A stretch of 64,000 nucleotides of DNA, taken from an uncultured Candidatus Saccharibacteria bacterium. Lineage in GTDB: Bacteria > Patescibacteriota > Minisyncoccia > Phycocordibacterales > GWA1-40-21. The DNA is taken from positions 75,336 to 139,335 of the forward strand of contig CAZEMP010000001.1 of assembly GCA_964513515.1 (NCBI GenBank). The letters are read 5' to 3'. Below the pieces are notes generated by a model. It was given only the letters and a program-made list of their open reading frames with translations, was not told the origin of the DNA and made no database searches. Position numbers and translations under genes: made by a program. This document shows, piece by piece, positions 8,574-63,876 of this stretch (positions within the stretch are counted from its first letter, which is position 1; each line of letters starts with the position of its first letter).

Positions 8574-8603
8574 ATATTTAAAGTATACACTAAATTATTT
8601 TTT

Positions 8604-8648
8604 CAACAAAAGAATAGGGCCCGAGTCTCGTAAAGACGACTCGGGCCC
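8604..8648 (-). terminator. intrinsic terminator of the minus-strand GC-rich unit
   Basis: Perfect 11-bp stem GGGCCCGAGTC/GACTCGGGCCC followed on the minus strand by TATTCTTTTGTTG. Confidence 0.6.
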
Positions 8649-9385
8649 CTTGCCAAATTTTGATAGGCACATTCTTTTGTCATGCTCTCTGCAGAGCATC
8701 AAGATCTTTGTTATTTGGGCCCTTGGCGGAGCCCATAACGCGGATCAGAACATTCCTCACCGTTGGCCAGACGATACAGGTGTGGTTAGTACCCGTATTT
8801 GATGCATTTCGCAGACCACCTGAGGTATTACCTCAAGCAATCTAGATCCTCCCGGACCCCTATGGATCAGTTATCCATAGACTTGTGACAAGAAAGAAAT
8901 CGTAGAAATGAGAGCCCTTGCGGACAACTCTTCCCTAGACTTCTCAAGACTTCTAGACATTGCATATTTTGGTTGCCTTTATGGCTTCCATTTGGTCCTT
9001 GTTTAAGGGATCAATGTGAATTGTCACTACCTTAGCCTGGAGGCATGGGGTAATAACTTTCCACAATATGTTCTGTGACAACTCTTTTCCCTTTCGAGTT
9101 AAGAGTTATGGATTTGATCTGTTTAGGATCTTTTCCACATCACCTACTGTCGTTACTCTTACTCGCGTAAGTTCACGGGAAGTAGGTTGATTAGCTAGAA
9201 GTCGCTGCATCTTGTGTGACTGCCGTTCGAGCGGGTTCGAGGCCCACTTATATTTCCCTGATGGTTTCGAGGCCATCATTTCTCGTCTGTCTGCGAGAAG
9301 GAACAACAGTTTGCGTGCGCAAAATCTTTTTGCTACGCTGTGCCAACTAAATTTGTGAAAGAACTGATTTACGTTACAACTAAAA
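8649..9385 (-). ncRNA. candidate large structured non-coding RNA (~740-780 nt, class unknown)
   Basis: GC-elevated block (~45% vs ~30% background) bounded by a promoter and terminator on the minus strand. It has no ORF of 60 aa or more in the transcribed orientation. Confidence 0.35.
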
Positions 9386-14948: not shown

Positions 14949-15839
14949 TTATATCTTAAAGTCTCCAACCTTCATCCTTTTTATATTTAAAGCTAAAGCT
15001 GGAATACCAACTTTTTCTCCGATAGCATTGGCCAAACTTCTCATGTAGGTACCGCTTGTACAATTTACCCTGATTGAGATAATAGCAAATGCAGAGTTGG
15101 TTGCGTCACATATAATTTTCTGCTGAAAATTTATGCCGACCCCGACTCCTTCACCTTCGTTCAGTCCGTCTTTGAAAAGCTCCACGTATTCGCTTTTCAA
15201 CGCTTCGCTCGCAAAGACATTATTCCATTTTTCTAATATTTCTTCTTGGCGGAAATCTCCTTTTACTAGATTAATAGATTCTTTTATATATTTATGTAAG
15301 TCTTCTTTTGATATTGTTCTTTCCTCCAAAAGTTCAATGTTTTTTATTTCTACTTCTTTTGATTCAATTTGATCACTGTCCAATTCCTCACTTCTAGCAG
15401 AATTCCAATATTTTGATGAGTATGCTGGATATTTTTGAGAATATCGACCTATAAAAGAATTTAACAATTCCTTTATAGTGTCGTTCCCGCGAAAGCGGGA
15501 ATCTAGATTTAGTAAATCCGTCTGGATTCCCGCCTTCGCGGGAATGACAAGACCCAAAACATCGTAGGTATCTGTATTAAAACCAAAAAGTACATCTACT
15601 TCATATTCTTTATCTAAACCTAAATATTTTTCCTTATTTTTACATTCCTCTCCTACCAAAACTAAAAGTAAGCCTTCTGCGAGAGGATCGAGCCTTCCTG
15701 CATATGTCATCTTTTCATTTTTATATTCTTTATTATCTGTTTTAAATCTTTCCAAACATTCAAGTGGTGTTTCTCCCCTCTTTTTGTAAAGACTCAATAT
15801 TCCTTGTTTTGGCTTCATAATTTGATAGAATACTACCAT
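14949..15839 (-). CDS. truB: tRNA pseudouridine(55) synthase TruB (carries in-frame palindromic insertion)
   Basis: AGRLDPLAEGLLLVLVGE catalytic-Asp motif and the TruB PUA-less architecture. It includes a 21-aa insertion encoded by the GC-rich palindrome. Confidence 0.7.
   Translation of the reverse strand: MVVFYQIMKPKQGILSLYKKRGETPLECLERFKTDNKEYKNEKMTYAGRLDPLAEGLLLVLVGEECKNKEKYLGLDKEYEVDVLFGFNTDTYDVLGLVIPAKAGIQTDLLNLDSRFRGNDTIKELLNSFIGRYSQKYPAYSSKYWNSARSEELDSDQIESKEVEIKNIELLEERTISKEDLHKYIKESINLVKGDFRQEEILEKWNNVFASEALKSEYVELFKDGLNEGEGVGVGINFQQKIICDATNSAFAIISIRVNCTSGTYMRSLANAIGEKVGIPALALNIKRMKVGDFKI
15484..15545. repeat. 62-bp GC-rich nested palindromic element inserted in-frame in truB
   Basis: Two hairpins, TTCCCGCgaaaGCGGGAA and ATTCCCGCcttcGCGGGAAT, flank a spacer. 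The outer inverted repeat is GGGAATCTAGA/TCTGGATTCCC. GC content contrasts sharply with the surrounding gene. Confidence 0.6.
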
Positions 15840-21463: not shown

Positions 21464-24334
21464 TTATATTACAAAATTGATTATTCTGTTTTTAACAAAG
21501 ATTTTCTTAATTATTTTTACATTTTTCAACCACTTGACAACGTGTTCATTTTTTAAAGCTGTAGCTTCAACCATCTGCTCATCCGAATCTATAGGAACCT
21601 CAATAGTTGCCCTTACCTTTCCACTAATTTGAACTATTATTTTTACAATCGATGAAATTAATTTTGTATCATCATATTCAGGCCAGGCCTCAGTAACAAT
21701 AAGTTTTTTATTACCAAAATTCTTCCAAATCTCTTCGCACATATGTGGAGCAAACGGAGAAAGAATTTTTATAAAATCTAGATAAGCTTTTTTACTTATA
21801 TTTTGTTCTGATTCAAGTAGGTTTGAAAATATCATCATAGAAGATACTGCTGTGTTTGCATTGAAAGATAATATATCTTCTCCAACTTTTTTAATCGTTT
21901 TGTTTAACGATAAAATAACCCTTTCACTATCTGTAAATTTATCAATGACTTTATCTTGTAATTTCCATACTCTTTCCAAAAATCTTCTCGATCCTATCAT
22001 GCTGTCTGTACTCCATGATATCTCCTGCTCAAAAGGACCCATAAAAGATTCATAAATTCTTAATGTATCTGCACCAACATTTTTTATAACGTCATCCGGG
22101 TTAACAACATTTCCCCATCTTTTGCTCATTTTTCTTCCATCAGAGCCAAGAACTGTACCTTGATTTCTAAGTTCCTTAAATGGTTCTTTACCTGAAACAA
22201 TACCAATATCAAATAAAAACTTATGCCAAAATCTTGCATATATTAGATGTCTTGTAGCGTGCTCTGTACCACCCACATACATATCTACCGGTGACCAATA
22301 CTTTTCTTTCTTTTTATCTACAATGGCTTTATTATTTTTTGGATCAATAAATCTTAAATAATACCAAGAAGAACCGGCCCACTGTGGCATTGTGTTTGTT
22401 TCCCTTTTAGCTTTCTCTCCACAATTTGGACATTTAGTATTTACCCAACTCTTCATGTCAGCAAGAGGTGACTCTCCTGTACCTGTTGGCTCATACGATT
22501 TAACTTTTGGAAGTAAGACTGGTAAATCCTTTTCTGGCACTGGCACAACTCCGCATGTCTCACAATGAATAAGTGGTATTGGCTCTCCCCAATATCTCTG
22601 TCTTGAAAAAACCCAATTTTGGAGTTTGTATGAAGTGGTCAATTTTCCACCAGCAAATTCTGTTATGTCTTTTTTTACTTCAGTATTTTTTCTACCATCA
22701 AACCTGCCAGAATTTACCATTACTCCGTCGAGAGTATAACAATCATTGTTCAAAACTCTTTTCCACATAAGCTTTAAATCGTCACGGTTTAAAAATTTCT
22801 CCATTTCTTCTGCTGTGAGCCACTCGGTTTTGTGTAGCTTCTTTTCATGTTCTGCTATCGGAGCAGTTTCTCCATTTTTTAGTTTGTATAAAAGTGGTGT
22901 CCAGTGAGCAAGACGATTTTCATTCTTTACTGCTTGATAAAAGCTAGCATCAACTTGAAAACCTAAAGCGCGAACAAAAACTGCATTAGCATATCCAGTT
23001 TCTTCCTTTATTTCTCTGACACCAGCATCTGCTATGTCCTCATCTTCATTTACACCCCCAGTAACAAATCCTCTCCAATCATTTTTTGTCCAATGTACGC
23101 CTAAATATTTTTCTTCTGACCAATGTTTAATTATACAAACCATAACAGTTCTCTCTGTATAAGGTAAATTTTCGCGAACTGCATCATCACCAATAGTTCT
23201 TACAAATTTTGGTCTTATTACTTCTTTAATAGGAAGATTATATTTCTTTGCAAAAGCAAAATCGCGCTCATCATGAGCCGGAACCGCCATAACTGCACCT
23301 GTACCATAATGAGCAAGTACGTAGTCTGAAATATATACTGGTATTTTTTCTTTAGTAATAGGGTGCTTCACAATCACACCCTTTAAAGGGACGCCTGTTT
23401 TTTCTCTTGATTCTGATGTGCGTTCAATTTCTGATTTTGTTTTTGTAAGATTTATGTAATCTTGTACATCATTCCAATTTTCAATCTGTGGTTTTAGCTT
23501 ATCAATAAGTTTATGCTCTGGTGCTAAAACTACATAAGTTACACCAAACAAAGTATCTGGTCTTGTTGTAAAAACAATCACTTTCTCATCTGAATTGGCA
23601 ATATTAAACCATAATTCTGAACCTTCACTCTTTCCTATCCAATTCCTCTGAAGTTCTTTTATATGTTCAGGCCAGTCAAGTTCTTTTAAATCAAGAAGAA
23701 GTCTTTCTGCATAATCACGAATCTTTAACACCCATTGTCTCATTGGCTTTTTTTCAACCACTGTTCCACACCTCTCACATTTACCATCTTCCAAATCTTC
23801 ATTAGCTAGACCGGTCTTACATGAAGGACACCAATTGATCGGCTCGTTAGATTCATAAGCTAGACCCTTTTTAAAAAGTTGTAAAAAAATCCATTGTGTC
23901 CATTTGTAATATTTTGGGTCGGTCGTATTTATTTCACGATCCCAATCATAACTAAGACCAATCATCTTTATCTGCTCTTTATATCTTTTAACATTCTTCT
24001 TTACAGCAGTCGCTGGATTGATCTTCATCTTTATCGCGTATTGTTCTGCTGGTAAACCGAAAGCGTCCCATCCCATAGGATGAAGTATGTTAAAACCTTG
24101 CATTCTCTTTAGTCTAGAATATATGTCTGTTGCAATGTATCCTCTTGGATGTCCAACATGTAAACCTTCTCCAGATGGATAAGGGAACATATCCAAAACA
24201 TAGTATTTTGGATTATTATTTTTTTCAGAAGTTTTATAAACTTTTTTCTTGTCCCAAATAGCTTGCCATTTTTTCTCTATTTTTAAATGATTATATTTTA
24301 AATTCTGAGGTTTTAGTTTCATAACATTGTGCAA
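21464..24334 (-). CDS. leuS: leucyl-tRNA synthetase carrying an inserted NUDIX hydrolase domain
   Basis: HVGHPRGY (HIGH) and KMSKR motifs. The editing region TTRPDT...GTGAVMAVPAHDERD is present. An extra ~165 aa with a canonical Nudix box lies between the editing domain and the GVMVNSGRFDG block. Confidence 0.9.
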   Translation of the reverse strand: MHNVMKLKPQNLKYNHLKIEKKWQAIWDKKKVYKTSEKNNNPKYYVLDMFPYPSGEGLHVGHPRGYIATDIYSRLKRMQGFNILHPMGWDAFGLPAEQYAIKMKINPATAVKKNVKRYKEQIKMIGLSYDWDREINTTDPKYYKWTQWIFLQLFKKGLAYESNEPINWCPSCKTGLANEDLEDGKCERCGTVVEKKPMRQWVLKIRDYAERLLLDLKELDWPEHIKELQRNWIGKSEGSELWFNIANSDEKVIVFTTRPDTLFGVTYVVLAPEHKLIDKLKPQIENWNDVQDYINLTKTKSEIERTSESREKTGVPLKGVIVKHPITKEKIPVYISDYVLAHYGTGAVMAVPAHDERDFAFAKKYNLPIKEVIRPKFVRTIGDDAVRENLPYTERTVMVCIIKHWSEEKYLGVHWTKNDWRGFVTGGVNEDEDIADAGVREIKEETGYANAVFVRALGFQVDASFYQAVKNENRLAHWTPLLYKLKNGETAPIAEHEKKLHKTEWLTAEEMEKFLNRDDLKLMWKRVLNNDCYTLDGVMVNSGRFDGRKNTEVKKDITEFAGGKLTTSYKLQNWVFSRQRYWGEPIPLIHCETCGVVPVPEKDLPVLLPKVKSYEPTGTGESPLADMKSWVNTKCPNCGEKAKRETNTMPQWAGSSWYYLRFIDPKNNKAIVDKKKEKYWSPVDMYVGGTEHATRHLIYARFWHKFLFDIGIVSGKEPFKELRNQGTVLGSDGRKMSKRWGNVVNPDDVIKNVGADTLRIYESFMGPFEQEISWSTDSMIGSRRFLERVWKLQDKVIDKFTDSERVILSLNKTIKKVGEDILSFNANTAVSSMMIFSNLLESEQNISKKAYLDFIKILSPFAPHMCEEIWKNFGNKKLIVTEAWPEYDDTKLISSIVKIIVQISGKVRATIEVPIDSDEQMVEATALKNEHVVKWLKNVKIIKKIFVKNRIINFVI

Positions 24335-24400
24335 CTTTTATAAAAAATTATCTTTTAATACTACAATAAATTATCTTATTGATAAAGGGTAATAAAAAAC

Positions 24401-24428
24401 TTGACAAAAGATAGTTATGCTATATATT
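24401..24428 (+). promoter_or_regulatory. sigma70-like promoter (TTGACA-16-TATATT)
   Basis: TTGACA at 24401-24406 and TATATT at 24423-24428. Confidence 0.45.
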
Positions 24429-24468
24429 ACTAGACTTATGTTCTTTCGTTTTATATCGCAATCAATTT

Positions 24469-24660
24469 TTGTCGAGAAAACAAACCCGTAATGGAGGATC
24501 GGTGCGAGTCAGGAAGCATCACATACTCACAGGTAGGGTGATGGAGTCGTTCTGTCCCGGATTCAAGGGCTTCGACAAGAGGATGAAGGAGAGGGCGGTA
24601 CTGCGTGTGTACGACCACCTGAAGAGTCAGGGCGAGCTCGTCCACATGGGGAGGAAGTAA
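24469..24660 (+). other. GC-rich small transcription unit (structured sRNA or small basic protein; unresolved)
   Basis: Segment of ~55% GC between a near-consensus promoter and a strong terminator. The frame starting at TTG 24469 gives a 63-aa basic peptide. An internal ATG with an SD-like AGGTAGGGTG gives 40 aa. Confidence 0.3.
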
Positions 24661-24683
24661 CGCTGGGCAACCAGCAAAAAGAC

Positions 24684-24712
24684 GGCGGGGTAATCACCCC
24701 GCCTCTTTCTAT
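24684..24712. terminator. bidirectional intrinsic terminator
   Basis: GGCGGGGtaatcaCCCCGCC with T-rich runs on both strands. It also follows the rmuC stop. Confidence 0.6.
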
Positions 24713-24719
24713 TCTCATT

Positions 24720-25847
24720 TTATTCGTCTTCCCTCTCAGGTTTAGCTAATTCTAGTATTTCTAGATCTGAATCAATACCAGTGATTCTTACAACATCCTT
24801 ATCAATCTTTTTAAACTCTTTATTTGAATTATTAAAGTGACTTACCGTTGTAGAAAGTGCATTACCGAGCTTTTCTTGATATTCGCCATAGCTTCTTAAA
24901 TGTTTTTGTAAACTCTCAACGTTTTTCTTTATATCTTTTGCTGATTCTTCAATCTGAAGTGCTTTCAAACCTTGTAGAACCGTTTGTAGATATGCAAGAA
25001 ATGATGTTGGAGAAACAATAATTACATGCTTTTCTTTAAATGCGTATTCAACGAGATCTCTGGTATTTACTTTTATAGCTCCAACTTGAGATATAAGAAG
25101 ATCATAATATATAGCTTCATGCGGAATAAACATAAATGCAAAATCCATTGTCCCCTCGCCCGCCTTAACATATTTTGCCGTCTCATCTATTCTTTTCTTT
25201 AAATCTTCTTTAAAAAGTTTCTCTAATCTTTCTTTTTCAACTTGATTCTTTTCATCAACAAGACGGTTGTAATTTTCAAGAGAGAATTTGGAATCTATAG
25301 GTATTATTTTATCTTTTACAAAAACAACAGCGTCCACAATAGTTCCATCTTTAAATGAATATTGCATTTGATAGCTTCCTGTCGGTAAAACATTTTTTAG
25401 TAATGTTTCAAGATAATATTCTCCGAGAATTCCTCTTTGTTTAGGATTTTTAAGAATATCTTGCAAAGATTGAAGTTGGTCCGCAAAAGAAACTACTTGC
25501 TTATTTGTCTCATCAAGTCTTGTTAATTTTTCTGTAATATCACGAATAATATTGAAAGATTCCGTAGATTGATGTTTCAAAGATTCGTGCATTTGCTTTG
25601 AATTCTCACCTATTTTTTTATCTACAGTTCTATTAAGCTCATTGATCTGCTCTAAAATTAGCTTAAGACCAATATCTTCACCTTTGTTTTCTTTATTAGA
25701 TTCATGTTTAACTATGTAATACAGGAGAGCTGCGATTATAACTATGAGTATAAGTAAAATAATTGTTAATACTGTTGCAAAATTCATGATGTCATTATAC
25801 CAATAAATAATAAATGTGGTAATATTAAAAAGTTTAAAATTATTCAT
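24720..25847 (-). CDS. rmuC: DNA recombination protein RmuC
   Basis: N-terminal TM helix, coiled coil, and a C-terminal RmuC nuclease-like region (DFAFMFIPHEAIYY). Confidence 0.7.
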   Translation of the reverse strand: MNNFKLFNITTFIIYWYNDIMNFATVLTIILLILIVIIAALLYYIVKHESNKENKGEDIGLKLILEQINELNRTVDKKIGENSKQMHESLKHQSTESFNIIRDITEKLTRLDETNKQVVSFADQLQSLQDILKNPKQRGILGEYYLETLLKNVLPTGSYQMQYSFKDGTIVDAVVFVKDKIIPIDSKFSLENYNRLVDEKNQVEKERLEKLFKEDLKKRIDETAKYVKAGEGTMDFAFMFIPHEAIYYDLLISQVGAIKVNTRDLVEYAFKEKHVIIVSPTSFLAYLQTVLQGLKALQIEESAKDIKKNVESLQKHLRSYGEYQEKLGNALSTTVSHFNNSNKEFKKIDKDVVRITGIDSDLEILELAKPEREDE

Positions 25848-25862
25848 AATTTTGAAAAAACT

Positions 25863-26315
25863 ATGTCATTACACAAACAAATAAAGGATGGGATAAAAGA
25901 AGCTATGATAAAAAAAGATGCGCTTCGCCTTACGGTGCTTCGTAATATTTCCTCTGTTTTCACAAACGAAATGATTGCTAAAAAAATCACTACGGAAGAG
26001 CTTTCTGATGAAGATGCAATAAACATAATTAGAAGACTAGTTAAGCAAAGAAAAGATTCGATTGACCAATTTACAAAAGGAAATCGTATGGATCTTGTAA
26101 AAAATGAGGAGGATGAGATGAAAGTACTTGAAACTTTTCTTCCTAAAATGATGGAGAGAGGTGAAGTAGAAAAAATAATTAAAGCAAAAATATCAGAAGC
26201 CGGAACAATAGATAAAGCAAAGCTCGGTCAATTCATGGGAACAATAATGAAAGAACTGAAAGGAAAAGCTGATGGAATGCTTGTAAAAAATATTTTGGAG
26301 GAATTGGTAAAATAA
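25863..26315 (+). CDS. GatB/YqeY domain protein
   Basis: 150 aa with the typical YqeY helical pattern. Confidence 0.7.
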   Translation: MSLHKQIKDGIKEAMIKKDALRLTVLRNISSVFTNEMIAKKITTEELSDEDAINIIRRLVKQRKDSIDQFTKGNRMDLVKNEEDEMKVLETFLPKMMERGEVEKIIKAKISEAGTIDKAKLGQFMGTIMKELKGKADGMLVKNILEELVK

Positions 26316-26373
26316 TATTTATATATTAGACATTAAAAAGCATCTGATTTTAAAAAATTGGGTGCTTTTTAAT

Positions 26374-26401
26374 TTGACATAACTCAATATAGTGTTATAG
26401 T
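26374..26401 (+). promoter_or_regulatory. sigma70 consensus promoter (TTGACA-16-TATAGT)
   Basis: Exact -35 hexamer at 26374-26379 and TATAGT at 26396-26401. Confidence 0.5.
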
Positions 26402-26450
26402 TGAACTTGAGCTTTGTTCACCACGTCGTAAACAGAGAGGTTCTTAAACA

Positions 26451-26717
26451 GTGGCGGTAACGATCGATACGTCTCGCGTTTCGACGCAGGATGTCGCGTG
26501 CACCCGAAAATGGATCGCTATTCATGGCTTCTGCGGCCTTGCCTTCACCAAAGCGGAAGAGGAACGCAATCTCCCCTCTGGGACGATGGCGAGCTACTTC
26601 GGCAAGCGCAGACTGATGAAGAAGCGGTCTGTCGAGAGGCGCCCTTTGGAGAAGGCGCGCGTCCCCATTCCCAATTGCAGGGACTGGATGGCGGAGTGGG
26701 AGGCAAACCAGCCTTAA
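26451..26717 (+). other. GC-rich small transcription unit (88-aa GTG-initiated ORF or structured RNA; unresolved)
   Basis: ~57% GC. The ORF ends 6 nt before a strong terminator. An alternative 80-aa frame overlaps it, so coding status is ambiguous. Confidence 0.3.
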
Positions 26718-26723
26718 GAATGG

Positions 26724-26758
26724 GGGCGGGTCTAGTATAGACCCGCCCCTCTTTCATT
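26724..26758 (+). terminator. intrinsic terminator
   Basis: GGGCGGGTCTAgtataTAGACCCGCCC followed by CTCTTTCATTTG. Confidence 0.65.
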
Positions 26759-26803
26759 TGTTCAAAATATTAAAAACTGTTATATTTGTTTTTGTATTTC
26801 ATT

Positions 26804-26875
26804 GGCCTTATCGTCTAACGGTTAGGACACGGCCTTCTCAAGGCTGTAATCGGGGTTCGATTCCCCGTAAGGTCA
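26804..26875 (+). tRNA. tRNA-Glu (anticodon CTC)
   Basis: Manual fold. Acceptor GGCCTTA/TAAGGTC, D-arm GTCT..GGAC, anticodon stem CGGCC/GGCTG with loop TTCTCAA, T-arm CGGGG-TTCGATT-CCCCG, discriminator A. Confidence 0.75.
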
Positions 26876-26888
26876 CAAAAATAATAAA

Positions 26889-26926
26889 CCTGACACAAAG
26901 TATTGTGTCAGGTGATTATATTTTTG
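26889..26926 (+). terminator. intrinsic terminator after tRNA-Glu
   Basis: CCTGACACAaagtatTGTGTCAGG followed by TGATTATATTTTTG. Confidence 0.5.
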
Positions 26927-26931
26927 TAGAG

Positions 26932-26947
26932 CTTACGGGGAATCGAA
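26932..26947. repeat. 16-nt inverted copy of the tRNA-Glu T-arm/acceptor 3' segment
   Basis: CTTACGGGGAATCGAA is the reverse complement of tRNA positions 26856-26871. Confidence 0.5.
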
Positions 26948-27099
26948 AGACGAAGCGGGGCCCAAAGGAAAAACTAATAACACAATATAAAAATTATCAT
27001 TTGTAAATTGATAATAAAATATTTAAATGTTAAATTTTTTATAGAAGTACACGTCCCGTCACAGCGCGGGGCATAACCCAAAAAAGAGGTTCAAACCAA

Positions 27100-28170
27100 A
27101 TGACTCAGGAAAACGAGACGGAAGCGGTCCATCCACTCCTTTCAAAGGAGGTTGGGCCAATCCGAAATTGGCATGAATGGCTAGAGTACTGGAACAGGGC
27201 GGATAACTACCAGTGGATGGAGAGTTTGCTCCACACAGGTTTTAACGTCCCACTCGAGAAGATGTCCTCTGAAGAAAAAGAGTATGACGAGCTTGACCGC
27301 TACATATTCTACTTCTCTGTGGCAGACGGATGGGCACACCACTGGAAGTCTGAAGGTAGTTGGCGTGATGAGAAAGAATACGACATCGGTGTTCGTGGTA
27401 CAAACGGATCATCGAGAAAGTTCACGATACCTCAACTTCGCCGTCGATTGGCAACAAAAGCATTCGATATACTGTGTCTGAACCTATTCAGGGTAGAGTT
27501 GCGACTTAGTGGAGAAAGTGAATTCTACTGGAGCTGGGAGCGTCACATAGCTTCCAAAAAACTCTTCCCTGTGATTGTGAATTTCTTCAGGATAGAAAAA
27601 AGTAAGTTCGGTAGTGGTGCGGAGATTATTAACCTGTCTCAATGTTTTCATGGTGAAAAATCTCACAACGAACAACATGCCGTTAACTTTCTTCTACATC
27701 TGGTGGAATTCATGTGGGAGTGTAAGAACAACTGGATAACTTCCACTCCTGCGACTGAAAGGGATGAGATGATTATCCGCGTGAATGAGGCAAAACCGTG
27801 GATGATCGAGATCCTTGCTGAGCTCGGGAAACTCGATAAGTTACGCAGATGGATACTTGATCTTGATAAAACTTGTCTTTCCAAGATCAAGGAGATCGCA
27901 ATGCGTAACAGGCTTACTGGGTTTCGAGATCGAGGAGAGAACGAAGATCGCTTTGTCTCCTCACTTGATGAGGCCTGCTATGCCGGCTCAAAAGCAGCCT
28001 GGTTCCTCAAAGAGCATGAGCTAATGCAAAAGGAAAGCAAGCGCCTTGAGGCTATCCGCGAGTCTGAGAGAGCAAAGTGGGAAGTTGATCGCAGACGTGA
28101 AGCGATTCGTGAAGCCGAGAAGGCAAAAGCTGAAGCTGACCGCAAACTCAGAGACCTTAAGGGTCAGTGA
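27100..28170 (+). CDS. hypothetical protein, GC-rich (~48% GC), Trp-rich with C-terminal charged coiled coil
   Basis: 356-aa ORF with an AAGAGG SD. Codon usage is distinct from neighbouring genes. A terminator follows immediately. Confidence 0.5.
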   Translation: MTQENETEAVHPLLSKEVGPIRNWHEWLEYWNRADNYQWMESLLHTGFNVPLEKMSSEEKEYDELDRYIFYFSVADGWAHHWKSEGSWRDEKEYDIGVRGTNGSSRKFTIPQLRRRLATKAFDILCLNLFRVELRLSGESEFYWSWERHIASKKLFPVIVNFFRIEKSKFGSGAEIINLSQCFHGEKSHNEQHAVNFLLHLVEFMWECKNNWITSTPATERDEMIIRVNEAKPWMIEILAELGKLDKLRRWILDLDKTCLSKIKEIAMRNRLTGFRDRGENEDRFVSSLDEACYAGSKAAWFLKEHELMQKESKRLEAIRESERAKWEVDRRREAIREAEKAKAEADRKLRDLKGQ

Positions 28171-28181
28171 GTTTGTAAGAA

Positions 28182-28220
28182 CTGCGGGGTCCGACAGGAC
28201 CCCGCAGCTTTCTTTTATTT
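28182..28220 (+). terminator. intrinsic terminator
   Basis: CTGCGGGGTCCgacaGGACCCCGCAG followed by CTTTCTTTTATTTT. Confidence 0.65.
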
Positions 28221-28296
28221 TAAATATTATTCACTCTTGATATTTTTCTATTTTACATATATTATCCCCACCGGAAAACATCCCGGGAGGGTGTAA

Positions 28297-28482
28297 ATGT
28301 TGAAATGGTTTATTTCGTTCTTTGGCCACTTTGTCTTGTGGCAGTGGCTTCTTTTCACCTTTATCGTCGTCGTGGTGTGCTTCGTGTTTTGCTGCCTTCT
28401 TGGTCTTTGGTCAGTCGTGACCGTGTGGGCCAAGCAGGAAGAAGAAGCAAAACGTAACCGCGTTTGGACTATGGGCTGGTGA
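28297..28482 (+). CDS. small hydrophobic membrane protein (GC-rich)
   Basis: 61 aa with a strong SD (GGGAGGG) 6 nt upstream of the ATG. Two TM segments. Confidence 0.4.
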   Translation: MLKWFISFFGHFVLWQWLLFTFIVVVVCFVFCCLLGLWSVVTVWAKQEEEAKRNRVWTMGW

Positions 28483-28490
28483 AAAGAAAA

Positions 28491-28517
28491 GGGCCGTCGC
28501 GCAGTGCGCGATGGCCC
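28491..28517. terminator. GC-rich hairpin terminator (stronger T-run on minus strand)
   Basis: GGGCCGTCGCGCAgtgCGCGATGGCCC, with TTTTCTTTTC on the minus strand. It serves the 28528-28821 gene. Confidence 0.55.
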
Positions 28518-28527
28518 TTTCAAATTA

Positions 28528-28821
28528 TTATACAGAGACAGGTTCTCTTTCTGATCCACCTTCATTTTTTAAACTTAGTGCTTTAATAACAAACTTTGCT
28601 GCTTCATTATATTCTCCACTATTAATAAGATCTCTGACTTCTATATTTTCCGGATCATCAATAAGTTTAGCAATATTTTTTGCATTTTCTGATAACCATT
28701 TTGCTTGGTTTATTGAATCTTCAAGACTCATGTTTAATTCTTTTATTATAGCAATCTGAAGAAAATTTCTTGCTTTTGTTGAAATTTCTTTTGAATTTTC
28801 TTTTAATGTTTCTGTTACCAT
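28528..28821 (-). CDS. hypothetical protein
   Basis: 97 aa, AT-rich native composition, helical. No family recognised. Confidence 0.4.
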   Translation of the reverse strand: MVTETLKENSKEISTKARNFLQIAIIKELNMSLEDSINQAKWLSENAKNIAKLIDDPENIEVRDLINSGEYNEAAKFVIKALSLKNEGGSEREPVSV

Positions 28822-45376: not shown

Positions 45377-45610
45377 TTACGCTTCCGGTTTGGAAGTGAA
45401 AAACCCCCACGTAAAGCTGTAATGGTGCGCTTCCGCACCGCAATTCATACAGCTTGTCTTGTAATAGGATCCCCATTTCCTATCCGTGATCTTGGTCTTG
45501 AAGCTTCCACAGACCCCGCACCTACCTGCCCGAAAGGTAAAGAGTACGACGGCTCCGACACCAACCAGAACTGCTCCAGAAACCGCTGCGACTACTGCAG
45601 GCGTTGGCAT
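45377..45610 (-). CDS. small TM + CxxC...CxxC zinc-ribbon protein, GC-rich copy
   Basis: ~77 aa starting MPTPAVV. The SD is GGGAGG. One TM helix, then the CGVCGS...CMNCG motifs. ~58% GC. Confidence 0.45.
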   Translation of the reverse strand: MPTPAVVAAVSGAVLVGVGAVVLFTFRAGRCGVCGSFKTKITDRKWGSYYKTSCMNCGAEAHHYSFTWGFFTSKPEA

Positions 45611-45757
45611 TAGGACAGCCTCCCAAGAAAGTTGAATTAACAACCGGAAAAATATATACTAAATAAATATATATGTCAATATAAATAACTTATAAGAAAA
45701 CAAAAAGCCCAGAACAAAAGGCTTTTTGTCTGGACTACTAACTTCTTTGGTGTAATA

Positions 45758-46003
45758 CTATCTGCTAAAGATCCTGTTGGCAAAATGGCTTACCTTGCCA
45801 ATACCACATCTTTTGCAGATCTTCTCTACTATGATGTAGTAGACATCTCCATGATGTTGACTAGAACCCTTGGCGTGCCTAAGCTTAAGGGTGATCTTAG
45901 AGCTTTTACAAAGATCACATTTTCCTCTCAACCTAAAGAACAGCACGATTCCAACAATGAGTAGAATCGTGATGAGAAAAATCACGACTTCTAACATTGT
46001 CAT
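45758..46003 (-). CDS. small TM + CxxC...CxxC zinc-ribbon protein, AT-rich paralog
   Basis: 81 aa with SD AGGAGG. One TM helix, then the CDLCKS...CKRCG motifs. Shares the FR.RG.C..C.S.K...YY...C..CG...HF pattern with the GC-rich copy, and has a similar terminator hairpin. Confidence 0.45.
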   Translation of the reverse strand: MTMLEVVIFLITILLIVGIVLFFRLRGKCDLCKSSKITLKLRHAKGSSQHHGDVYYIIVEKICKRCGIGKVSHFANRIFSR

Positions 46004-53866: not shown

Positions 53867-56026
53867 ATGAAACTTTTAATTGTTGAGTCTCCGTCAAAAG
53901 CGAAGACAATAGAAAAATATTTGGATGGTGCATATACCGTACGAGCAAGTATCGGACATATTCGCGATTTACCAAAATCCAACAAAGACGCTATCGATAT
54001 TGATGGTGGTTTTATTCCACGTTATGTGGTCAGCCCTGGGAAGGAAAAAGTAGTATCTGAAATAAAGAGCTTAGCTAAACGCGCTGATGAGGTATTGCTC
54101 GCAACCGACCCTGACCGAGAAGGAGAAGCTATTGCATGGCATGTAAAAGAAGCTGTTGGACTCAAAAATCCAAAAAGGGTTCGCTTCTATGAGATTACAA
54201 AAGATGCTGTAAAAGAAGCTTTGACTCATCCAACAGATATAGATGACAATTTAAGACGTGCGCAAGAAGCAAGACGTGTACTTGATAGACTTGTTGGCTA
54301 TGATCTTTCTGGACTTATCTGGAAAAAAGTTCGCTATGGACTTTCTGCAGGAAGAGTGCAATCCCCTGCACTCCGTATAATAATGGAACGTGAAAGAGAA
54401 ATTCGCGCATTCAAACCAGAACAATTCTGGACTATTGAGACTGACACACAAACAAAAAATGGAGTTAAAATTCTTTTGGGATGTGATGAAGAACCACGTG
54501 ATATAAAAAAGGTAGAGAAAATACTTGAAATTGGAAATAAGGAAACTTGGTCTGTAAAAAATGTAACTGAAACAGAAGCGAAAAGAAGTCCTAAAGCACC
54601 TTTCACAACTTCCACTCTTCAACAAACAGCAAGTACACGTTTAGGATTTGCACCCTCAAGAACTATGGGTATTGCTCAAAAACTTTATGAGGCTGGACTC
54701 ATAACATATATGAGAACAGATAGTACAAATCTAAGTACAACTGCCCTTGATCAAATAAGTTCTATGGTTAGTAAAAAATATGGGGCCAATTATGCAAACA
54801 GAACTATTTACAAAACTAAAAGCAAAAATGCACAGGAGGCACATGAAGCAGTAAGACCAACCGACATCAACAAAGAAAGTGCTGGACTTACTGATGAGCA
54901 AAAAGAATTGTACAGACTTATTTGGCAAAGAACTGTTGCATCACAAATGTCAGATGCAAAAATACTTAGAACAAAGATTATTGCAGGTGTTACAAACCCT
55001 GAAATTCCAACATTTTCTATTAATGGATCTCGAATGCTTTTTGATGGTTGGCTAAAGGCCGATCCAGATGCACGAGGTGAAGATGTAGAGCTTCCGAGTG
55101 TTTTAGTCGGGGATATTTTAAAATTATTAGAATTAAGATCTACGGAAAAATTTACCGAGCCACCAGGTAGATATAGCGAAGCTGGACTCATTAAAGAACT
55201 CGAAAAAAGAGGTATTGGTAGACCTTCTACCTATGCTTCTATTATGAAGACGCTAGAAGAAAGAAAATATATAGAAAAGATAAACAAAGCTTTATTCCCT
55301 ACTGACACGGGAGAAGTAGTGAGTGACTTCCTTGAGAAAAACTTTGCTGAATATATAAGTGATACTTTTACTGCAGAAATGGAAGATGAGCTTGATGAAA
55401 TCGCAGAAGGAAAAAGAGATTATGAGAAAACTTTGAAAGATTTTTACGGTCCTTTTTCAAAAGATATAAAAGCTAAAAATAAAATAGAAAAAGTAACAAA
55501 CCTTGGTGAAGCTGACCCGAGTATAAAATGCCCTGTTTGTGGTGGGCCAATGATAATAAAGCTTTCAAAAAATGGTAAATTCTTAAGCTGTGCTAAGTTT
55601 CCTGAATGTACAGGAGCAAGAAAAATAACAGGAGAAGAAATGGAGGGTCCAAAAGAAACTGGTGAAAAGTGTCCGGAGTGTAAAGACGGTAAGCTTGTGG
55701 AAAGAGACGGAAAGTTTGGAAAATTTGTTTCTTGTTCAAACTATCCAAAATGTAAATATATTAAAAAGGATGCTATACCAACAAATACTACTGGAATAAA
55801 GTGTCCTGTATGTAAGACCGGTGAGATGGCGGAGCGAAAAGGAAGATTTGGAATATTTTACAGCTGTACCAATTATCCAAAATGTAAATATGCAATTAAA
55901 GCCAAGCCAACAGGAAAGAACTGTTCAACATGTACTTCACTTATGATGGCTGGTACCAAAACTATACCAGAGCGTTGTTCAGACAAGATGTGTCCAAATC
56001 ATAACCCACACAAACTAAATAAATAA
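53867..56026 (+). CDS. topA: DNA topoisomerase I with C-terminal zinc-ribbon repeats
   Basis: Toprim MKLLIVESPSKAK, the catalytic Tyr region, and three C4 ribbons near the C-terminus. Confidence 0.9.
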   Translation: MKLLIVESPSKAKTIEKYLDGAYTVRASIGHIRDLPKSNKDAIDIDGGFIPRYVVSPGKEKVVSEIKSLAKRADEVLLATDPDREGEAIAWHVKEAVGLKNPKRVRFYEITKDAVKEALTHPTDIDDNLRRAQEARRVLDRLVGYDLSGLIWKKVRYGLSAGRVQSPALRIIMEREREIRAFKPEQFWTIETDTQTKNGVKILLGCDEEPRDIKKVEKILEIGNKETWSVKNVTETEAKRSPKAPFTTSTLQQTASTRLGFAPSRTMGIAQKLYEAGLITYMRTDSTNLSTTALDQISSMVSKKYGANYANRTIYKTKSKNAQEAHEAVRPTDINKESAGLTDEQKELYRLIWQRTVASQMSDAKILRTKIIAGVTNPEIPTFSINGSRMLFDGWLKADPDARGEDVELPSVLVGDILKLLELRSTEKFTEPPGRYSEAGLIKELEKRGIGRPSTYASIMKTLEERKYIEKINKALFPTDTGEVVSDFLEKNFAEYISDTFTAEMEDELDEIAEGKRDYEKTLKDFYGPFSKDIKAKNKIEKVTNLGEADPSIKCPVCGGPMIIKLSKNGKFLSCAKFPECTGARKITGEEMEGPKETGEKCPECKDGKLVERDGKFGKFVSCSNYPKCKYIKKDAIPTNTTGIKCPVCKTGEMAERKGRFGIFYSCTNYPKCKYAIKAKPTGKNCSTCTSLMMAGTKTIPERCSDKMCPNHNPHKLNK

Positions 56027-56136
56027 TCATAGATAGTTTTGGTAAGACGGAGCACACGAAGCGAAGCGAAGTCTGTTTTCAGCAGAAAACAGGTGTGAGT
56101 CGTGGTCAGGGAAATTTCTGAGTGTCGACGAAGAAA

Positions 56137-56208
56137 TTATCTGTGACCGAAAACAATTCCGGAAAGATGTAGCGACAAAACTTGTTTGATGCACAATCCT
56201 CACAAATT
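56137..56208 (+). pseudogene. divergent in-frame duplicate of the topA 3' end (last ~21 codons)
   Basis: Translates PKTIPERCSDKTCLMHNPHKLNK*, against the topA C-terminus TKTIPERCSDKMCPNHNPHKLNK*. Most differences are synonymous (cgt/aga, tca/agc, gag/gaa). Confidence 0.45.
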
Positions 56209-63379: not shown

Positions 63380-63876
63380 AAGGGGGCACCTTTCGGTACT
63401 CCCTTTCCATAACCTTTATACCTATAAGCCGAATTCTGTTTGTTGTATTACTACAACAAGATAATCATCTGTCTGGGCCAAACATTACTGTTTAGCTCAA
63501 GCGGCGCTTCCCCACACCTATTCTGTTATCATTGCTATCGTGTTTTAAGATACTAGACGATATTAACTTTTATTTACTAAGTAGACTTAATATCATTTTA
63601 CAAGTCTCGCTTAGCAACAAAAACACAATAATAGAATAGGTGTGGGGACTCGGCCTTGCACCAAGGTAAGGAATTTTGCCGTTGCACCCTTATGTTGCCA
63701 TAAGGACTATCCACTAGGGATATCTCCATTCTTTCGTCTGGAGCCGTTTCTGTTCGCACCTCTCATATTGCTATGGACGGGCGTTACCCGCTACCCTTCT
63801 CCTCAACTTTAACATTGAGGTGATGTTCGGACTTTCCTCCCCAACAAAGTTGGAGCAATTATCCAATATAAAGGCA
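63380..63876 (-). ncRNA. rnpB: RNase P RNA (bacterial type A-like) containing a 136-nt palindromic insertion
   Basis: Minus-strand motifs GGAGGAAAGTCCGAAC (P4/CR-I), GGGTAGCGGGTAACGCCCGTCC, GTGCGAACAGAAACGGCTCC, GCCGCTTGAGC and ACAGAATTCGGCTTATAGG (CR-IV). P1 pairs CCTTTATA with TATAAAGG. A terminator hairpin lies at 63377-63410. Confidence 0.65.
63512..63647. repeat. 136-nt palindromic unit embedded in the P15-P17 region of rnpB
   Basis: CCCCACACCTATTCTGTTATCATTGC...GCAACAAAAACACAATAATAGAATAGGTGTGGGGA. The conserved RNase P segment GCCGCTTGAGC follows directly. Confidence 0.55.

Follow-up and report, generated by a model that had tools for sequence, protein, structure and literature searches.

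A tRNA-Glu 3′ flank in a Paceibacteria-type genome as a likely insertion hotspot for recombinase-less palindromic mini-elements and gene cassettes

Why should a tRNA gene be followed by an inverted copy of its own 3′ end and by genes much richer in GC than the DNA around them? This arrangement is found behind tRNA-Glu(CTC) in the 64-kb stretch of contig CAZEMP010000001.1 analysed here (hereafter the window; overall GC content 33.1%), where a first-pass annotation had proposed a decayed island with two foreign genes, designated E356 and F61 below. The window was compared with 80 loci fetched around RmuC (L024–L103), with L023, the closest relative sampled, and with loci encoding E356 homologues, including L104. 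We consider it likely that the 3′ flank of this tRNA gene, in a Paceibacteria-type genome, is an insertion hotspot that accumulates recombinase-less units one behind another, and that these units are of two kinds, i.e., palindromic mini-elements of approximately 110–200 nt and gene cassettes that are self-contained, with promoter, gene, and terminator in each. This reading is carried by an insertion relative to the nearest relative, by the foreign composition of the inserted genes, by the recurrence of E356 in tRNA-Glu flanks, and by a family of mini-elements that match the tRNA they follow. The features of the locus are the following (GC3, GC content at third codon positions; ORF, open reading frame; UTR, untranslated region).

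26752–26803 (+): AT-rich native tRNA promoter region (TTTGTTCAAAATATTAAAAACTGTTATATTTGTTTT...), near-identical to that of L023
26804–26876 (+): tRNA-Glu, anticodon CTC (ARAGORN; Rfam tRNA, 60.1 bits), the anchor of the putative hotspot
26856–26947 (no strand assigned): 92-nt palindrome with arms of 32 nt each (26856–26887 and 26916–26947), 81% complementary
26877–28234 (+): 1358-bp segment absent from L023, starting directly after the tRNA (..GGTCAC) and ending in ..ATTATTCAC, then TCTTGATA
26888–26913 (no strand assigned): apex hairpin with an 11-bp stem and an AGTA loop, called on both strands by the terminator scan
26926–26947 (+): inverted arm (IRL) GTAGAGCTTACGGGGAATCGAA, reverse complement of the last 21 nt of the tRNA
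26948–26962 (+): mini-element core start AGACGAAGCGGGGCC, 15 nt, by comparison with L061, L095, L104, L100, and L072
26978–27036 (+): E356 promoter region from the promoter scan, with −35 TTGATA (27008–27013) and −10 TAAATT (27031–27036)
27053–27081 (+): E356 5′-leader hairpin GUCCCG-UCACAGCG-CGGGGC, then AUAACCCAA
27100–28170 (+): E356, ORF of 356 aa with 15 Trp (4.2%)
28182–28207 (+): E356 intrinsic terminator from the terminator scan, CTGCGGGGTC...GACCCCGCAG plus T-run, 11-bp stem with 9 GC pairs
28237–28296 (+): F61 promoter and 5′ UTR, homologous to the promoter that follows the tRNA in L023 and E356 in L104
28297–28482 (+): F61, ORF for a 61-aa single-pass membrane peptide, with a GGGAGG Shine-Dalgarno sequence (28285–28290) and a GC3 of 0.63
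28491–28517 (+): GC-rich hairpin after F61, at the right end of the GC-rich stretch, with a strong stem, lacking a T-run and missed by the terminator scan

The tRNA-Glu(CTC) gene named by the first-pass annotation was recovered by both ARAGORN and Rfam and is located between YqeY and MurF, an arrangement that recurs in approximately 20 related loci; LeuRS, RmuC, YqeY, MurF, and PBP occur in the window in an order common to many metagenomic Paceibacteria-type contigs (Patescibacteria, or candidate phyla radiation, CPR). The synteny of MurF, tRNA-Glu, and YqeY–RmuC in these related loci indicates that the tRNA gene itself is native. Its orientation relative to MurF and RmuC varies (L032, L037, L072, L090, L100, and L102 versus L023, L040, L050, and L095), and L072 carries two tandem copies of tRNA-Glu(CTC), suggesting that the locus has been inverted or duplicated repeatedly.

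L023, which is 97% identical to the window in RmuC, 89% in YqeY, and 75% in MurF, presents the order MurF, a 107-aa gene, a 64-aa peptide gene, tRNA-Glu(CTC), a 98-aa gene, YqeY, RmuC, and LeuRS. There, the promoter of the peptide gene abuts the tRNA (..GGAGTCAC followed by TTGACGCTTTTCTATTG.., also read as GGAGTCAC followed by TTGACGCTTTTCTATTGTTCTTATATTATC), and its counterpart in the window starts at 28235 (..ATTATTCAC followed by TCTTGATATTTTTCTATTTTACATATATTATC); the segment 26877–28234, which begins at the base after the tRNA and has TCAC at both junctions, is therefore extra in the window. Because no E356 homologue was found in the 80 loci fetched around RmuC, gain in the window lineage is more parsimonious than loss elsewhere. 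The first-pass annotation would have given up the island if related genomes all carried the same genes beside tRNA-Glu; since L023 is empty and these genes are absent beside tRNA-Glu in all 80 loci, this objection does not arise.

The segment also differs from the window in composition. Its GC content is 41–50% in 400-nt windows, and GC3 is 0.50 for E356 (46.9% GC) and 0.63 for F61 (48.4% GC), as compared to 0.16–0.29 (mean 0.23) for the 34 other long, native ORFs and 0.10 for the native convergent gene next after F61 (28528–28821, −). The GC excess is real but lower than the ~48–55% originally given; nor does it start at the tRNA, as 26402–26750, upstream, already reaches 57% GC. In other genomes, GC3 of E356 equals that of the host in eight and exceeds it in five, the pattern expected of a gene moving among Paceibacteria. 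The codon composition of E356 and F61 is that of a GC-richer relative and is foreign to this genome. Measured against a classical island, then, the locus has the position at the 3′ end of a tRNA gene, the empty site in a relative, and the deviant composition; a distal direct repeat (attR) is absent from the window and present at the homologous loci L104 and L005, and no integrase or recombinase is encoded in the segment, whose genes are E356 and F61 only.

E356, flagged at first pass as a Trp-rich ORF, is genuinely coding, since it has 73 homologues and a confidently predicted fold. The homologues are 34–57% identical to it, none carries a functional annotation, and the few taxon-named ones belong to Patescibacteria; the homology search recommended for this protein named no functional family. 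A profile search returned 661 cluster representatives (274 at E ≤ 1e-30), all of approximately 300–385 aa and none fused to another domain. The AlphaFold model (predicted local distance difference test score, pLDDT, 89.7) is mostly alpha-helical, with two small beta-hairpins and a 58-residue C-terminal helix; Foldseek searches of PDB and BFVD gave no significant match to this fold, and the sequence had no match in Pfam, PHROGs, PADLOC, NCBIfam, or PDB sequences. A phage origin was rejected, as IMG/VR contigs contain neither E356 nor the mini-element motif; the possibility that the segment is a structured RNA rather than genes was also rejected, as Rfam (gathering and E-value thresholds) returned only the tRNA in 24300–28700.

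The expression signals of E356 are conserved. The gene has a Shine-Dalgarno sequence, AGAGG, at 27085–27089; its promoter and leader are 77–87% identical to those of L104 in aligned windows, and the promoter and the leader hairpin (GUCCCG-UCACAGUG-CGGGGC-AUAACC) are present in all 18 E356 loci examined. In the hairpin, 95.4% of cells are paired and three of the six pairs show compensatory changes, a score reached in 0 of 500 shuffles; no Rfam family matches the leader. We regard the leader as a candidate for a new cis-regulatory RNA, to which E356 itself may bind. Of the “own strong terminators” announced at first pass, the one after E356 was recovered, and its stem sequence is kept after the L005 homologue, but the hairpin after F61 has no T-run and was not called by the scan.

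The 61-aa membrane peptide with its GGGAGG sequence was found as described at first pass. The sole relative of F61 detected is the peptide that follows E356 in L104 (approximately 48% identity); with the 64-aa peptide of L023, no similarity was detectable at the protein level. A promoter-like site precedes each of E356 and F61. By comparison with L023, the position of F61 and its promoter are ancestral to the locus. The island with foreign cargo postulated at first pass hence holds as regards absence from L023, foreign codon composition, and recurrence of E356 in tRNA-Glu flanks, but not as regards the position and promoter of the small peptide gene.

E356 is located in the 3′ flank of tRNA-Glu in five other lineages (L104, L016, L005, L003, and L009). 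L104 is a 1.7-kb contig that encodes the closest E356 homologue (57% identical); it starts with a tRNA-Glu(CTC) 3′ end identical to that of the window over 29 nt, including the variant GTAAG, which was found only in these two among the tRNA-Glu genes examined, and continues with a complete mini-element, a direct repeat (TTTCCCCGTAAGGT), a hairpin, the promoter and leader, E356, a terminator, and the F61 homologue. In L016, E356 is directly preceded by a mini-element of the Glu(CTC) type and a direct repeat, while L005 presents tRNA-Glu(TTC), a 200-nt mini-element, a direct repeat, a reversed E356 cassette, and a second direct repeat. In L003 and L009, E356 follows tRNA-Glu(TTC) directly, and in L001 it follows tRNA-His; in eleven other loci no tRNA was found near E356 within the fetched sequence (≤5 kb on either side). 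A different gene cassette occupies a tRNA-bounded slot in L040 (4718–5343), where tRNA-Glu(CTC) is followed by a promoter, a small Cys-rich ORF, a tRNA-end fragment (CCGTGATAGGTCAC), and then a complete type-2 mini-element (115 bits).

The likeness to L104 brings up another explanation, namely that the block of tRNA-Glu, mini-element, E356, and F61 was acquired whole, and already arranged in this way, from a GC-richer relative through homologous recombination, with the conserved tRNA as the left anchor and the peptide gene or its flank as the right one; no site-specific mechanism would have acted here, and the inverted repeat would have come along or decayed later. We regard such an import as possible but doubtful. 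It accords with the shared order, the identical tRNA 3′ end, and the 77–87% identity of promoter and leader in L104, with a GC-rich stretch that includes two GC3-rich genes and ends only after F61, and with a promoter of F61 that is orthologous in the window, L104, and L023; moreover, while RmuC is 97% identical between the window and L023, their tRNA-Glu genes differ at 9 of 72 positions. L104 itself is not the donor, given the identities of only 57% (E356) and approximately 48% (F61), and the mini-element parts differ between it and the window. The tRNA promoter directly upstream (26752–26803) is nevertheless of the native type, common only to the window and L023 and without a match in more distant relatives, and an import of this kind leaves the presence of E356 and mini-elements behind tRNAs in many lineages unexplained.

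The mini-elements constitute a family of their own. All 73 tRNAs in the fetched loci were scanned for copies of their own ends, an inverted copy being defined as a 12-mer of the tRNA's own T-loop/T-stem with ≤1 mismatch. Twelve of the 73 had an inverted copy downstream (+54 to +77) and 11 a direct copy of the last 14 nt (+120 to +550); upstream, neither kind was found for any of the 73. The tRNAs with mini-elements are of the isotypes Glu, Gln, Lys, Ala, and Leu, and as the same layout recurs behind 11 other tRNAs of five isotypes, the inverted copy in the window is not a one-off. Its orientation, which the first-pass annotation had called unusual while reading the 16-mer as an attachment scar of the island, is instead that of a regular arm in a family of palindromic elements that follow tRNAs.

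These mini-elements are non-coding and palindromic. A full unit comprises the tRNA end; a palindromic spacer running from an A-run to a T-run and beginning at the last base of the tRNA; the complement of the discriminator and of the acceptor 3′ strand; a hairpin of 6–9 bp that sits exactly where acceptor and T-stem meet and usually has a CTGC loop; the complement of the T-stem 3′ strand and T-loop (..GGGAATCGAA); a core of 60–130 nt; and a direct copy of the tRNA end (14–18 nt). The inverted arm (~20 nt) forms 18–21 of 21 Watson-Crick pairs with the tRNA it follows and in every case fewer with each of the other tRNAs in the set, and it complements the tRNA 3′ strand (GAC..) rather than copying the 5′ strand (GGC..). 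Behind identical or near-identical tRNA-Gln genes, the number of units is zero in L055, one in L061 and L062, two in L053, and three in L069, with exact boundaries at ..CCCAGC; two of the L069 units are identical and the third has a different core. In L064, one core occurs in both a Lys shell and a Gln shell within a single genome.

A second subtype, whose inverted arm is only 4 nt long (GTGA), aligns across six genomes. Its core folds into three predicted hairpin domains with conserved single-stranded joints and 40 predicted pairs, 25 of which show compensatory changes. With a covariance model of this subtype, further copies were found, two of them in the window away from tRNAs. One (56010–56150, +; model R1, 39 bits, E ~1e-7) is intergenic, after a 719-aa ORF and far from any tRNA, and consists of GTAAGACGGAGC, a hairpin with a CAGCAG loop, GAGTCGTGGTCAGGG, a hairpin, and GTGACC; AAATAAATAA stands on both sides of it, which may be chance in AT-rich DNA. 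The other (15103–15197, −; 23.5 bits, E ~4e-4) is a shorter core copy inside the ORF 14949–15839 (−), the frame of which stays open, an arrangement reminiscent of the palindromic elements inserted in frame in Rickettsia genes. Rfam 15 had no family match on the mini-elements of 14 loci, its matches in the window being tRNA and RNase P only, and we found no description of tRNA-matched palindromic elements in CPR in the literature; the family is apparently undescribed, although tRNA-anchored accretion hotspots themselves are known. A kissing interaction between CTGC and GCAG loops was considered and rejected, as the loop variants CTTC and GTTA do not covary.

Could these modules be RNAs rather than inserted DNA? 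In that case, after transcription together with the tRNA or behind it, the inverted arm and the direct copy would pair as a mimic of the tRNA acceptor/T-arm minihelix, with the hairpin in place of the D and anticodon arms and a structured insert in place of the T-loop. This would yield either a small tRNA-like RNA, matured by RNase P and RNase Z, or an anti-tRNA or attenuator; the inverted arm of the window, standing alone, would bind the tRNA 3′ half in read-through transcripts or just lengthen the terminator. The units do fold as a closing “acceptor” helix, a hairpin that branches exactly at the acceptor/T-stem junction, and a “T” helix enclosing the core; they end exactly at a tRNA-like discriminator position, the core has the three domains, conserved joints, and compensatory changes (25 of 40 pairs) given above, and a read-through transcript across the window palindrome would, according to its predicted RNA fold, sequester the tRNA 3′ half (z = −11). 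The compensatory changes, however, suit folded single-stranded DNA equally, no Rfam family matches, and one core copy lies within an ORF. Varying copy number behind near-identical tRNA-Gln genes, identical tandem units, and exact boundaries look like insertion events, and gene cassettes (E356 in L005, the small gene in L040) fill the same repeat-bounded slots; furthermore, re-matching both arms to a new tRNA around one core, as in the Lys and Gln shells, needs a copying mechanism rather than point mutation. We consider an RNA identity of the modules rather unlikely, but a serious rival to the hotspot reading.

Within the window, CTTACGGGGAATCGAA (26932–26947) is, as reported at first pass, the exact reverse complement of 16 nt of the tRNA (positions 26856–26871), but the repeat extends further than described, to the 32-nt arms of the 92-nt palindrome. 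A 16-mer inverted match is expected 0.03 times per window (window shuffles); two were observed, counting the tRNA itself. The palindrome is made up of the T-loop, T-stem, and acceptor 3′ strand of the tRNA with an A-rich trailer, the apex hairpin, whose loop is the symmetry axis, and a T-rich stretch with the inverted copy; as single-stranded DNA, it has a predicted folding energy of −40.4 kcal/mol (z = −12.1). The apex hairpin contains GC pairs and is flanked by a T-run on both strands, as a putative bidirectional intrinsic terminator in the consensus scan, and the palindrome probably acts as a bidirectional terminator or insulator between tRNA-Glu and E356.

The inverted arm of the window is exact over 16 nt, has two differences in the distal acceptor part, and forms 18 of 21 Watson-Crick pairs with its cognate tRNA, the variant GTAAG included. 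The stretch 26877–26962 reads as a spacer (AAAAATAATAA), the apex hairpin, TTATATTTTT, the inverted arm (GTAGAGCTTACGGGGAATCGAA), and the core start (AGACGAAGCGGGGCC), which is comparable to GAAGACGGAAGC in L095 and AGACGGAGGC in L061 and whose sequence AGACGAAGC fits the family consensus GAAGRCGGAGC. After 26962, the remaining core and the direct tRNA-end repeat are gone, and from approximately 26956, clearly from 26978, the window is homologous to the part of L104 that is located after the direct repeat. The family layout up to 26962, combined with this homology, points to a mini-element that lacks most of its core and its direct repeat; 26877–26962 appears to be its 5′ stump, fused to the E356 expression cassette, with F61 next.

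Other origins of the inverted copy were considered. A tRNA or pseudo-tRNA on the minus strand was rejected, as the T-stem 5′ strand is absent upstream of the fragment on that strand, and a retrovirus-like primer-binding site was rejected because the copy has no complement of CCA and the match spans the whole T-loop. An attachment fragment from a donor tRNA-Glu(TTC), as found upstream of E356 in L005, would also end in ..CTAC, but this origin is weakened by the 16 exact bases, which include the variant GTAAG of the window's own tRNA. The palindrome might also have arisen through a single illegitimate recombination, in which a hairpin folded back at a break by the tRNA terminator served as the primer from which trailer and tRNA 3′ end were copied, before the product was joined to foreign DNA; the symmetry axis exactly at the terminator-like hairpin loop, the genome's own GTAAG in the arm, the missing direct repeat, and a far junction with only the 4-nt microhomology TCAC all suit such an event, but the same layout at +54 to +77 behind 11 other tRNAs of five isotypes and the family core-start motif that follows the arm make it very unlikely. 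That the region is native and vertically inherited, with its GC content set by protein or mRNA constraint and a repeat due to chance or to the terminator, agrees with the confinement of named E356 family members to Patescibacteria, the host's own phylum, and with host-like GC3 of E356 in several genomes, but is highly improbable, as a GC3 of 0.50–0.63 versus 0.16–0.29 cannot stem from protein constraint, the segment is absent from L023 and E356 from the 80 RmuC loci, and a 16-mer match is so rarely expected.

With regard to how a hotspot of this kind would grow, exact boundaries, variable unit number, tandem arrays, repeat-bounded cassettes, and downstream-only placement together suggest repeated site-specific insertion at the tRNA 3′ boundary. 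In agreement with the earlier remark that no integrase remains, we found no recombinase ORF in the segment, E356 and F61 having no Pfam, NCBIfam, or PHROG recombinase match; as no unit encodes a recombinase, the enzyme would have to act in trans. The units may thus enter by site-specific recombination at the tRNA 3′ boundary, catalysed in trans. The element would then be a circle, possibly of single-stranded DNA, whose direct arm, spacer, and inverted arm could fold back into a copy of the tRNA gene-end duplex, a hairpin that would serve as the attachment site; integration of the folded single strand would leave the order tRNA, spacer, inverted arm, cargo, and direct arm, of which the window copy would be a decayed, now immobile remnant. 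A classical double-stranded attP does not explain a target-matched inverted arm.

Only tentatively do we extend this to a more general proposal, i.e., that Paceibacteria (CPR) carry a new class of recombinase-less cassettes, comprising structured mini-elements and single-gene units such as E356, which would insert exactly at the tRNA 3′ boundary via a palindromic site folded from one direct and one inverted copy of the target tRNA end; this would amount to a tRNA-anchored, integron-like array with an “attC” re-templated for each tRNA. We know of no classical integrative element, miniature inverted-repeat transposable element (MITE), or integron cassette that carries both direct and inverted copies of the adjacent tRNA, and the presence of both points to either a target-templated hairpin attachment site or a new tRNA-mimicking RNA. 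CPR/Patescibacteria have tiny genomes, and gene exchange among them is poorly understood; if the proposal is true, tRNA 3′ boundaries would be docking sites for very small recombinase-less units and a concrete route of gene flow, and these units would include a widespread orphan family (the 661 cluster representatives of E356) with its own conserved leader RNA. A practical lesson for annotation is that, where GC-rich islets and partial matches to tRNAs lie behind the tRNA genes of an AT-rich CPR genome, they mark recent cassette traffic.

Several points, in addition to the import by homologous recombination discussed above, weigh against the hotspot. The search for a second, direct copy of the tRNA 3′ segment, as proposed at first pass, found none in the 64 kb when up to 3 mismatches in 18 nt were allowed; the right junction (28231–28234) repeats no more than TCAC, possibly by chance. 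The E356 cassette of L005 has the opposite orientation relative to the tRNA and no inverted arm. No tyrosine-recombinase box-II motif was found in any ORF of the window, in a search that was crude and not decisive, and no autonomous element was seen in approximately 1 Mb of related loci. Loss of the segment from L023, rather than its gain in the window, is conceivable, although outgroups and composition favour gain. The core copies away from tRNAs, and the CTGC hairpin at the point where the D and anticodon arms depart from the acceptor/T-arm helix of a tRNA, fit a structured RNA or a general palindromic repeat no less well, and perhaps better, than a folded attachment site.

Further GC-rich islets were identified in the window. 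Directly upstream of tRNA-Glu, a GC-rich cassette (26374–26750) contains an 88-aa ORF with a GTG start (26451–26717; GC3 0.73; no Pfam, PHROG, PADLOC, or NCBIfam match) and a strong terminator (26722–26750); its promoter is conserved with L023, where an unrelated AT-rich 98-aa gene fills the slot, so that it looks like a payload swap behind a fixed promoter. Between LeuRS and RmuC, another GC-rich cassette (24335–24719) presents a consensus promoter (24401–24428), a 63-aa ORF (24469–24660; GC3 0.72) with no family match, and a terminator (24684–24703); since the LeuRS–RmuC gap is only 34 nt in L023, this cassette is a separate small insertion. Two islets lack long ORFs: 8591–9380, approximately 790 nt at 45% GC between two AT-rich genes, has a GC-rich hairpin (8617–8650), a longest ORF of 107 aa (minus strand) whose neighbouring fragments resemble a broken gene, and no Rfam or Pfam match, and may be a decayed foreign gene or an unfamiliar RNA; 2111–2490 is intergenic, with up to 53% GC, ORFs of only 40–54 aa, and no Rfam match at the gathering threshold. 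A GC-rich 88-aa ORF (45377–45643, −) stands beside an AT-rich 81-aa ORF (45758–46003, −), both with an N-terminal membrane helix and CxxC...CxxC; a weak Lar_restr_allev match (E 0.005) was obtained here, and the pair looks like a foreign paralogue next to a native copy. Finally, an RNase P RNA of class A (63409–63874, −; 125 bits) has, compared with the Rfam consensus, an insertion of approximately 105 nt in one of its helices.

Among known systems, the MITE-like structured palindromic repeats of small genomes, such as the Rickettsia palindromic elements and the Neisseria Correia elements, resemble the mini-elements in that the core is multi-copy, hairpin-rich, approximately 100–150 nt long, and intergenic, and in one case is found within an ORF without a frame break. 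The terminal repeats of a MITE are the same in every copy, whereas the arms described here are re-matched to the adjacent tRNA (Glu, Gln, or Lys) around related cores, and a target-site duplication of fixed length was not seen in the mini-elements. TIGR-Tas systems, whose arrays are processed to 36-nt guide RNAs beside a Nop-domain Tas protein (PMC12045711), were taken into account since they are found in CPR and target both DNA strands, but were rejected, given units of 110–200 nt and an E356 with no Nop or other Pfam match and no significant PDB fold match; the IS110 bridge RNA and the IS200/605 omega-RNA were also rejected, as there is no matching protein and unit size differs.

Islands next to tRNA genes that grow by successive integrations have been described as tycheposons in Prochlorococcus, with partial tRNAs, subsequent integrations, and remnants (bioRxiv 10.1101/2020.12.28.424599), and as ssrA-anchored islands in Dehalococcoides (PMC3146451). 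The locus described here shares with them a site at the tRNA 3′ end, flanking partial tRNA copies, newer units that push older ones outward, remnants, and deviant cargo. However, those islands are kilobases long and have their own tyrosine recombinase, while the units here measure 0.1–1.4 kb and none encodes a recombinase, and the small units differ from the islands in having the tRNA end in inverted copy as well as a conserved core rich in hairpins. Cis-mobilizable elements (CIMEs), the recombinase-less derivatives of integrative elements that are flanked by attachment sites and undergo tandem accretion (PMC5704250), are likewise non-autonomous, bounded by attachment-site repeats, arranged in tandem at one tRNA-type site, and in need of mobilisation in trans. 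They are decay products of identifiable integrative and conjugative or integrative and mobilizable elements, whereas no parent element was found here, and they have neither the target-matched inverted arm nor the conserved structured core of the mini-elements.

The third comparison is with attachment sites that are folded from a single strand, i.e., the integron attC and the CTXphi attP(+) used by XerCD (PMC4792948, PMC3442271). The palindrome arms here are derived from a tRNA and have no R″/R′ core motifs (RYYYAAC/GTTRRRY), no recombinase-type match suggesting an intI-type gene was found among the ORFs scanned, the crude box-II search of all window ORFs being negative, and the target is a tRNA gene end, not attI, nor the dif site at which integrative mobile elements exploiting Xer (IMEX) integrate via XerCD. 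The resemblance is one of anatomy only. Like integron cassettes, the units are short, recombinase-less, and found in arrays, with palindromic junctions that vary in sequence and keep their structure. The order of target, spacer, inverted target copy, cargo, and direct copy, which we derived from the published mechanism of folded attC and attP(+) sites, is present together with tandem arrays in L077, L069 (three units), L053, L061, L064, and L005, and the window retains only its first three parts.

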